Origin: Thermodesulfobacteriota bacterium
GTDB lineage: Bacteria; Desulfobacterota; Desulfarculia; JACQYL01
NCBI GenBank assembly: GCA_963675595.2
Contig: CAXXLZ010000001.1
Location: 352,001 to 416,000 of the forward strand
Length of the DNA stretch: 64,000 nt
Direction: 5' to 3'
Below, piece after piece: positions 395 through 2,104 of the stretch. The position numbers and the translations under genes were made by a program. How positions within the stretch are numbered: position 1 is the stretch's first letter; each line of letters begins with the position of its first letter. The notes under the pieces are model-generated. The model worked only from the letters and a program-made list of their open reading frames with translations. It did not search any database and was not told the origin of the DNA.

Positions 395-401
395 CCCCTT
401 G

Positions 402-407
402 TATATT
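402..407 (+). promoter_or_regulatory. -10 box (TATATT) of the IS110 circle-junction promoter
   Basis: Joining right end to left end gives TTGACA-AAGAACACAGTTGCTTG (17 nt)-TATATT. Confidence 0.75.
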
Positions 408-410
408 TAG

Positions 411-600
411 CATGCCATCTTTCATACTTAATGGAAGACGGCATGACCCGCAAAGTTGGTCACGGACATGACAGGCCGCCGGACCCCCAGGAGAAATGGA
501 CTCCGTTTGGAAGCTTGGGCCGTCATGTCCTTCCTCGAGATAACCCGTACAGTTGCCCGGCCTTTTAAGGCCGCATCTGCAAGGTTGGGTACGAGAGGAG
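411..600 (+). ncRNA. Predicted IS110 bridge RNA (ends approximate)
   Basis: 5' hairpin 411-445; target-binding loop closed by GGACATGAC/GTCATGTCC (464-472/522-530) with guides CCGGACCCC (479-487) and GTTTGGAAG (505-513); donor-binding loop with ACAGTTGC (549-556), hairpin CGGCCT-TTTA-AGGCCG and ATCTGCAAG (575-583). Confidence 0.8.
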
Positions 601-605
601 TTATC

Positions 606-1574
606 ATGGGCGAGATCACCTGTTTCGTGGGAATCGATGTCTCCAAGGACCGGCTTGAAATCGCCGTCGTTCCCGGCGAGGAAGCCTGGTCGATGACCAA
701 CCATGAAACCGACTTTGATGCTTTAATCAACCATCTCAAAAATCTTCCTTCCTCCATGATCGTCTTGGAGGCTACCGGTGGGCTTGAGACTCCGGTGGCG
801 AGCGCCTTGGCCGGAGCCGGGCTGAATGTGACCGTGGTCAATGCACGACATGTTCGTAACTTTGCCAAGGCCAAAGGAATACTGGCAAAAACCGATCGCA
901 TAGACGCCACAGTCCTGGCCCATTTCGCCCAGGCTGTCCGGCCGCAAATTCGGCCCTTGAAGGACGATCAGCTGCGAGCGTTGACTGCTCTGGCCGATCG
1001 GCGTGGACAAATCATAACCATGTTGACCGCCGAGAAGAACCGTCTTCGAAGCGCTCACCCCTCTCTGCACAAAGGCATCCAGGCCCATATCTCGTGGCTC
1101 CAAAAGCGCCTTGAGGACTTGGACCGGGAACTCCGCAAGGCGATTCGGGCATCTCCCATTTGGCGGGAAAAAGACGCTCTGTTTCAAAGTGTGCCCGGAG
1201 TGGGACACGTTCTCTCCTCGACTCTGCTGACCCGCTTACCCGAACTCGGGGCATTGAACCGTAAGCAGATCACCGCCCTGGTGGGAGTCGCTCCCCTGAA
1301 TCGTGACAGCGGGAAGATGCGAGGGAAACGCTCCATTTGGGGAGGCCGTGCCCAGATTCGGGCCGTATTGCACATGGCCGCCTTGTCCGCCACCCGTTCA
1401 AACCCGGTAATCAAAGCCTTCTACCAACGGCTTACTAAAGCTGGAAAAGCGCACAAAGTGGCTATGACTGCCTGTATGCGTAAGCTTCTGACCATACTGA
1501 ACAGCATGGTCAAAACCAATACTCATTGGCGCGTCCAACAGCCTGAAATCGGTGTCAAAGACACATTAAGTTGA
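606..1574 (+). CDS. IS110-family transposase/bridge recombinase (DEDD RuvC-like + Tnp domain)
   Basis: GIDVSK, LEATG, KTDRIDA, PGVG and RDSG (catalytic Ser) motifs all intact; ATG at 606 after GAGGAG RBS. Confidence 0.95.
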
Positions 1575-1713
1575 CCGGTTTATGTATCACATCGGTTAAC
1601 CGATGCTGCCGTGGTCTGCTGTGGCGCGGTGCTTGCGCGCGGCAGCCCCACGCGTGCCGCGCCTAGCAAGCGCCGTGTTACAGCTTCATAGGAATCAGTG
1701 ACAAACAACTCAG

Positions 1714-1719
1714 TTGACA
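1714..1719 (+). promoter_or_regulatory. -35 box (TTGACA) in IS110 right end
   Basis: Perfect TTGACA 13 nt upstream of the right CTT core. Confidence 0.75.
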
Positions 1720-2104
1720 AAGAACACAGTTGCTTCCCAAACTGTTTGAGCGGGTTGCTCGCTTGCGCTTCGCAACCGGGATCAGGGGCTCTCCATGCAT
1801 AAGTTTCCGGGTGCGCAATCATCGGATTATTGATCAAACCGATGCACCTTACGGATGTCCGGAGCCCGCATCAAGGGAGTCCGGGGTGATGTCGTTCCCC
1901 CGCGGAATCGATAGAGAAGTCCCCCCCCGTGAAGGATTGCCAATATCTTTGAGTGTGGCCGCACCGCCTGCGGCGAAGCGGCGGGGCGAAAGTCGGTCGA
2001 GACAAGGAATTCCCGGACCTTGGACCTTCACGCGGGACGGACACCGTAGTGCCTGCCCCTATTAACGTCGGGATTCTATCGTTCCCGAATTCATTTTGCC
2101 GAGA

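Follow-up and report, generated by a model that had tools for sequence, protein, structure and literature searches.

The window analysed here is a 64,000-nucleotide stretch from a Thermodesulfobacteriota bacterium (contig CAXXLZ010000001.1, positions 352,001 to 416,000), and coordinates below count from its first letter unless a genome contig is named. At positions 400–1734 it carries a 1335-bp insertion sequence of the IS110 group, similar to IS621, with a recombinase gene and a left end predicted to encode a bridge RNA. We consider it very probable that this element is intact and moves by bridge-RNA-guided recombination in the fashion of IS621. Its anatomy, the code that links its guides to its flanks, its precise presence or absence as a 1335-bp unit and a recent expansion in copy number are all visible in the DNA.

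400–1734, plus strand: insertion sequence, 1335 bp with the single CT core copy included at the right end; seven copies of equal length and a joint in a contig of sequencing run X1
606–1574, plus strand: recombinase gene, 322 amino acids, with DEDD residues D11, E55, D97 and D100 and catalytic residue S235

Each sequence-level feature that defines the IS110 group and could be tested was found. The left end (400–605) is non-coding and, at 206 nt, longer than the right end (160 nt, 1575–1734). Terminal inverted repeats are absent, as none of 10 inverted pairs joins the two element ends, and neither hallmark of the IS1111 group, a guide RNA in the right end and sub-terminal inverted repeats of 7–17 bp, was seen in the element. 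A first-pass annotation, made from the letters alone, had placed a complete IS110 bridge-recombinase element at 398–1735. All strings that it quoted were located where it had put them, its CTT is present at both junctions, and its identification is upheld by the protein domains, catalytic residues, two-loop RNA, flank matches, CT core and putative split promoter described below. The element is complete as claimed, with revised bounds: it spans 400–1734 (1335 bp) when the right-hand CT core is counted, and the CT at 398–399 belongs to the target.

The ATG of the recombinase gene is preceded by a Shine–Dalgarno sequence, AGGAG (596–600). Its product matches PF01548 with 89.2 bits (cut-off 29; E 3e-25) and the C-terminal Tnp domain PF02371 with 65.4 bits (cut-off 21.3; E 6e-18). 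Searched with phmmer against proteins of solved structure, it aligned with the IS621 transposase (PDB 8wt6; E 1.3e-37, residues 7–305) and the ISCro4 transposase (PDB 9t56; E 2.5e-36, residues 6–306). Residues D11, E55, D97 and D100 align with D11, E60, D102 and D105 of IS621, and S235-G236 aligns with S241-G242, the catalytic serine followed by a glycine; numbering in the deposited IS621 chain is offset by 2 residues relative to the published numbering. In the available text of Hiraizumi et al. (PMC11208158), these IS621 residues are named and shown to be essential. The alignment thus bears out the earlier statement that the DEDD and catalytic Ser motifs are intact. The closest relatives found share at most 58% protein identity, and the 90% cluster has 5 members.

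The left end has the fold expected of a bridge RNA, with a 5' hairpin and two large loops.

411–445, plus strand: 5' stem-loop of the putative bridge RNA, seen in the fold of 398–605
464–530, plus strand: target-binding stem-loop, with outer stems 464–472/522–530 and 474–477/518–521 and inner stem 490–493/501–504
533–598, plus strand: donor-binding stem-loop, with stems 534–537/592–595, 543–546/587–590 and 558–562/569–573

Region 398–605 folds at −80.7 kcal/mol (z −3.95), a stability equalled by 0 of 200 shuffles. The two-loop fold proposed earlier is recovered, as both the 5' hairpin and the 464–472/522–530 stem, GGACATGAC/GTCATGTCC, are present, and the 3' base of the donor-binding stem-loop overlaps the Shine–Dalgarno sequence. 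The minimum-free-energy fold also has the guide strands partly paired with each other, a detail that we dropped in favour of the alignment-based structure. A MAFFT alignment of 30 left ends revealed invariant blocks surrounding variable stems. RNAalifold returned the outer stem of the target loop, the inner stem and the inner stem of the donor loop, with 17 of 23 pairs maintained through changes on both sides; for the target-loop outer stem, 12 of 13 pairs show such changes. With the window structure imposed on the 30 left ends, 81.8% of 1017 cells pair, compared with 64.8% for shuffles (0 of 500 reach the observed value) and 37–46% for slid partners, and 25 of the 35 pairs change on both sides. 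Two stems score poorly, the window-specific inner target stem (56%) and the basal donor stem (53%). For the inner target stem, the low score reflects an offset of one column: the left-guide strand of the window is one nucleotide longer, and the covariance model described next shows this nucleotide as an insert.

Since Rfam 15 seems to hold no curated bridge-RNA family, we built our own covariance model from 29 orthologues, leaving the window out. This model matches positions 462–596 end to end (87.2 bits, E 5.6e-23), in the left end only. Across the genome, which comprises 6.79 Mb in 3 contigs, it finds exactly the seven copies of the element and none besides at E up to 1 (150 of 1428 candidates scored). 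A second match, at 19243–19280 on the minus strand (10.6 bits, E 0.11), covers just part of the donor loop in ordinary-looking sequence and was taken as chance. A covariance model of homologous left ends had been put forward in the first-pass annotation as a check on the RNA; compensatory changes and the 87.2-bit match speak for it, and the covariation between guides and flanks holds as well, as set out below.

The genome contains 11 DNA matches to positions 380–1760, seven of them near full length at 99–100%. All seven copies have exactly 1335 bp between their junctions, an open 322-codon frame and the CT core at both junctions, and outside that core no target sequence is duplicated. Five copies share one sequence, and a sixth departs from it by a single base. 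Compared with the other six, the window copy has 14–15 differences, all of them transitions within the coding region (713–1349); four alter residues (S49P, P152S, G157D and T223A) and eleven are synonymous. The non-coding ends (366 nt) are identical in all seven copies.

The flanks of these copies define the target. On the left they end in CCGGACCCC (n = 4), CCGGACCCCC, CTCGATCCCC and CCGCACCCCC, followed in each case by TTGTATAT. On the right, after ACAGTTGC, they read TTCCCAAAC (n = 2), TTCCAAAAC, TTCCTAAAC, TTCCGAATA, TTCCAAGGA and TTTCAAAGC, with flank starts TCCCAAA (n = 2), TCCAAAA, TCCTAAA, TCCGAAT, TCCAAGG and TTCAAAG. The seven flank pairs together spell out the target as CCGGACCC-CT-TCCNAA, in which the CT core is common to both junctions and position 13 is in practice unspecified. 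The sites and their guides are as follows.

391–399, plus strand: left target half, P1–P7 (CGGACCC), with the CT core at 398–399; identical in four copies at repetitive extragenic palindrome (REP) sites and matching the guide at 480–487
1735–1741, plus strand: right target half, TCCCAAA, read from the flank
479–488, plus strand: left target guide, CCGGACCCCC; flanks of the copies, orthologue tests and covariance model
505–513, plus strand: right target guide, GTTTGGAAG, whose AG at 512–513 pairs with the CT core
1726–1734, plus strand: left donor half, ACAGTTG, with the CT core; sequence reading and copies
400–406, plus strand: right donor half, TGTATAT, at the left tip of the element; CTTGTAT is nearly invariant in the 30 aligned left ends
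549–557, plus strand: left donor guide, ACAGTTGCC; the guide 7-mer is retrieved at the right end in 58 of 64 loci
575–583, plus strand: right donor guide, ATCTGCAAG; every cell of the CTTGT/GCAAG columns is paired (100%), with two-sided changes at 2 pairs
514–515, plus strand: candidate handshake dinucleotide CT, assigned by position, whose C could pair with donor position 7 (G)
584–585, plus strand: candidate handshake dinucleotide GT, assigned by position, whose G could pair with target position 7 (C)

In the first loop, the string CCGGACCCC at 479–487 repeats the flank at 390–398, and the reverse complement of GTTTGGAAG (505–513) agrees with the right flank CTTCCCAAA (1733–1741) at 7 of 9 positions. 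Read as guides, 505–513 is the complement of CT-TCCAAAC and 479–488 equals the left target half. In the second loop, ACAGTTGC at 549–556 is the element's right end (1726–1733), and ATCTGCAAG (575–583) is complementary to CTTGTATAT (398–406) at 7 of 9 positions, or 8 of 9 with one G–T pair. The first-pass annotation had reported these correspondences for both loops (479–487 with 390–398 and 505–513 with 1733–1741 at 7/9; 549–556 with 1726–1733 and 575–583 with 398–406 at 7/9), and they are correct, as are its readings of the target (CCGGACCC-CT-TCC) and donor (ACAGTTG-CT-TGTA). It had also named unrelated flanks at other copies as the outcome that would speak against it; the flanks of 7 of 7 copies fit the loop-1 guides, four of them closely and three with 4–6 mismatches in strict register. 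By their position, the dinucleotides after each AAG (514–515 and 584–585) may be the handshake guides described in the available text of Hiraizumi et al. (PMC11208158); of each, only the first base could pair with the other substrate's position 7.

Two side observations concern individual copies or variants. A 230-nt contig from a microbial-mat metagenome (X8), of low depth and with the right flank unlinked, carries G510A within the right target guide, a change that would shift the predicted right target from TCC to TTC. Copy L006 (contig C2, 1017344–1018678) may interrupt a gene, as a stop-free 674-codon frame on the minus strand runs across its reconstructed empty site; stop-free frames across the other reconstructed empty sites are uninformative at this G+C content.

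The same code is found in orthologues. A protein-seeded scan of one-genome-per-species contigs yielded 128 relatives, of which 80 were kept (L012–L091); they spread over many phyla, with a best protein identity of 58%, and lie in metagenome-assembled genomes of Chloroflexota, Gemmatimonadota, Proteobacteria, Cyanobacteria and others. Among the 80 loci and the window, 64 had the landmarks needed (a donor-guide motif and a CTTGTAT-like left tip), and the other 17 were dropped. For the left side, 57 pairs of flank and left end remained after removal of duplicates and of loci with a short flank. The left flank, taken as the 9 nt ending in the core, agreed with its cognate left end at a minimum of 8 of 9 positions in 22 of 57 pairs, compared with 46 of 3162 non-cognate pairs (mean match 6.95 versus 5.64), and most good matches fall between a conserved CG and the GG of the inner stem. 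The right tip, searched for with each locus's own donor-guide 7-mer with one mismatch allowed, was found in 58 of 64 loci, an agreement that is partly by construction. For the right flank (core plus 6 nt), 40 of 55 unique cognate pairs and 160 of 2900 controls agreed at no fewer than 7 of 8 positions, and all right-guide matches lie in a single slot, CCG-N6-AG-C. Donor sites covary as well: CTAGT left tips accompany GCTAG guides in 3 sequences and CTTAT accompanies GTAAG in 2, together 5 of 30 orthologues. The guide–flank matches of the window are not due to chance, as six further copies fit and the relation across orthologues beats permuted controls. According to the available text of Durrant et al. 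(PMC11208160), such covariation had already been documented in sets of 5,511 target and 2,201 donor pairs; the covariation here reproduces theirs, and the window element sits within it.

A related organism preserves the site before insertion. We aligned contigs of four public sequencing runs to positions 1–2400 of the window. One contig of run X1, 2561 nt long, covers positions 1–397 with 10 differing letters and resumes at 1733, skipping exactly 1335 bases, with three letters (CTT) that fit on either side. This joint therefore indicates that a related organism has the locus without the element, and that insertion is scarless. A 1335-bp skip in run X5 was not counted, its shorter side being 34 letters that could come from a near-identical unoccupied repeat copy. 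Many other contig joints, such as 1780 to 2104, reflect sequence of the repeat family on the right flank (1740–1800 and 2100–2160), not rearrangements of the element.

The ends of the element carry the halves of a putative circle-junction promoter, and two hairpins stand out, one in the right end and one in the left flank.

1714–1719, plus strand: TTGACA, −35 half of the putative circle-junction promoter, read from the sequence
402–407, plus strand: TATATT, −10 half of the same promoter, read from the sequence
1618–1684, plus strand: GC-rich hairpin of 29 pairs in the right non-coding end, which folds at −74.2 kcal/mol (z −5.4)
364–391, plus strand: hairpin from a repeated, REP-like intergenic sequence; it lies immediately upstream of the target and extends its 3' arm into the left target half

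From TTGACA to the end of the core is 15 nt, and circularisation would add 2 nt, giving a 17-nt spacer before TATATT. At fixed offsets in 40 distinct orthologue junctions, TTGACA is present at 5 of 6 letters or better in 25, and TATAAT at 4 of 6 or better in 35. No promoter-like site was detected in the integrated copy, on either strand, within 250–1900. These positions suggest that a sigma-70 promoter would be rebuilt across the junction of right and left ends; by analogy with IS621, expression would come from the circle. The 29-pair hairpin is probably missing from most orthologue elements, because all but one of those measured are shorter (1124–1302 bp, with one of 1500 bp). A small palindrome lies at 1590–1605, after the recombinase stop codon.

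Within a family of intergenic repeats that bear hairpins, one member class serves as the preferred natural target. The 45-nt left flank of the window copy folds at −28.7 kcal/mol, and a hairpin adjoins the target in 6 of 7 left flanks (−11.5 to −29.1 kcal/mol), the remaining one being weak (−5.6). Four insertions lie in one repeat family, in which one hairpin (GGGGAAACC...GGTTTCCCC) precedes the target and a second hairpin follows it. A search by the second hairpin found about 40 repeat copies, three of them occupied; the fourth one occupied has diverged too far for this search to detect. Repeat copies with the exact site CGGACCC-CT-TCC are occupied in 4 of 4 cases, and the roughly 37 unoccupied copies have CA or TT in place of the CT core or an altered left half. 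An unoccupied site with CGGACCCCTTCC has 0 matches in the genome, where the 17-nt predicted site likewise has 0 matches when one mismatch is allowed and 6 at two mismatches. One could read this genome as a natural record of specificity, in which host repeats have been selected to escape the element and pairing tolerates slippage through the position-9 C mismatch. We regard this as an unlikely account; if true, it would offer a natural system for off-target rules and host–element co-evolution, and two solitary right-end fragments might in that case be the traces of partial, half-match excision.

These fragments, of about 80 nt each, correspond to the final stretch of the element's right end and lie on contig C2 at 1729086–1729169 (L008, minus strand, 92% identity) and 734818–734896 (L009, plus strand, 85% identity). 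Both terminate in ACAGTTG-CT, after which comes CCCAAAG of a second repeat family, and that family's hairpin precedes each of them; they differ in their left breakpoints, which lie within the right-end hairpin or at its end. No convincing donor-like left boundary (CT-TGTAT) was seen at either fragment. They could be deletion remnants or partial-excision footprints. Separately, an unoccupied repeat copy at about 119,900–119,950 on contig C1, some 3 kb from copy L003, reads GGACCCCTTGTAAAAC, with TGTA after the core, as at the left tip of the element, not TCCA or TCCC, which could be a footprint or a coincidence. The genome also holds 13 further matches to PF01548, an IS110-family domain, in two groups of 5 and 8 copies (for example C1:343092–343520, C2:1358203–1358631 and C2:3699585–3700013). 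Several members of the 8-copy group adjoin the second repeat family (…TTTCCC followed by CCGGTCCCCTTTCAAAG), and the left-end RNA model detected nothing on any of the 13.

The cycle that we propose is taken from the IS621 literature. The element would excise as a circle, and joining of its ends would build the sigma-70 promoter, with TTGACA from the right end, 17 nt, and TATATT from the left end. This junction promoter would transcribe a left-end RNA of about 180–190 nt and, downstream, the recombinase gene. The first internal loop of the RNA would pair with the target and the second with the element's own joined ends, ACAGTTG-CT-TGTAT, and a recombinase tetramer with composite DEDD/Ser active sites would exchange strands at the CT core. 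Transcription, RNA–protein binding and catalysis of the element are thus predictions by analogy.

Several observations weigh against an intact, RNA-guided element. The divergence of the window copy, with its 14–15 transitions and four residue changes, leaves its own activity less certain than that of the majority allele. Rfam 15 gave no match in 1–2400 at E up to 1, and membership of the RNA in its class rests on our own covariance model. A circle junction was not seen in the contigs, a kind of record that would hardly reveal one. At the second core position, both 5' guides have C in place of U (488 and 557, where the core has T), and the IS621 screen, in the available text of PMC11208160, favoured full pairing to the CT core. 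Orthologues L040, L050, L056 and L071 likewise have no match at position 9 of the left guide, and a mismatch there agrees with the 'eight or nine nucleotides' of guide given in the available text of Durrant et al. (PMC11208160). Finally, when the insertions are compared in strict register with the predicted 16-nt site, mismatches number 1–2 at the four repeat sites and 4, 5 and 6 at the other three of the 7. The 5- and 6-mismatch sites have five C before T instead of four; in these two of the three off-repeat insertions the register is slipped by one base along the five-C run of the guide, and in the slipped register they match its ten letters at 10/10 and 9/10.

Two other explanations of the locus were weighed against bridge-RNA-guided movement. 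It might be that recognition of the repeat hairpin by the recombinase mainly sets the target, the matches between RNA and flanks being secondary or regulatory, for example as a structured 5' leader that controls translation. The target-abutting hairpins at 6 of 7 left flanks and the overlap of the donor-binding stem base with the ribosome-binding site would suit this idea, as would the target stem-loop of ISPpu10, presented as an added layer of specificity in the available text of a preprint (10.64898/2026.03.19.712850). However, at L006 the flank hairpin is weak and the guides still match at 12 of 16, and across orthologues the guides follow the flanks even though the targets are unrelated in sequence. 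The hairpin could add specificity but cannot replace the guide–flank code, and we give the idea very little credence. No more plausible, in our estimate, is a recent expansion followed by loss of activity, either of the window copy alone or of the entire family in the strain, that would have left a relic of intact appearance. Such a relic would be in keeping with the four residues that set the window copy apart from the majority allele (S49P, P152S, G157D and T223A), with an integrated copy that has no detected promoter and with the absence of a perfect unoccupied target from the genome. Yet the catalytic residues are untouched, and 11 of the 15 nucleotide differences leave the protein unchanged, a sign that both alleles have been under purifying selection; five identical copies argue for very recent movement, and all 7 copies have identical non-coding ends. 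We therefore retain bridge-RNA-guided recombination by an intact element as the preferred reading.

Elements of this kind are well described, and the present one is an added member and an ordinary find; the mechanism (described in 2024, with many papers since), guide code, junction promoter and preference for intergenic repeats are all already published, and it opens no new question. It adds a well-documented natural orthologue to the bridge-recombinase family and is a reasonable candidate for ortholog screens; its target and donor codes are readable, and seven independent insertions together with an empty site support them. The insertions also form a small natural data set on mismatch tolerance, with four sites at 1–2 mismatches and three at 4–6.

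Among known systems, the metagenome orthologues share the RNA architecture and guide code of the window element; they differ in their targets, most are shorter (1124–1302 bp, one 1500 bp), and in most of those aligned the left target guide loop is one nucleotide shorter than in the window. ISPpu9 and ISPpu10 of Pseudomonas putida, also of the IS110 family, resemble it in having multiple copies in repetitive extragenic palindromes, a likeness drawn from their published description (available text of PMC12288879 and 10.64898/2026.03.19.712850). The same sources describe a target-side stem-loop and a hybrid circle-junction promoter for ISPpu10 and, for ISPpu9, separate right-end modules that stand alone elsewhere in the genome; the solitary right-end fragments found here are just ~80 nt long and are at most candidate mobile modules.

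With IS621 of Escherichia coli the element shares both protein domains and the aligned D-E-D-D and S-G catalytic residues. As predicted from the sequence, the two are also alike in a left-end bridge RNA with a 5' stem-loop, target loop and donor loop, in the CT core, in a promoter split across the circle junction and in a preference for intergenic repeats. The IS621 donor sequence is nearly the same as that of the window element. The window protein is only distantly related to that of IS621 (E 1.3e-37), and the target sequence differs, as do the guide C at core position 9 and the long right end (160 nt) with its 29-bp hairpin. ISCro4, the name given by the depositors to the transposase in PDB 9t56, is a second relative of solved structure, with a score similar to that of IS621.

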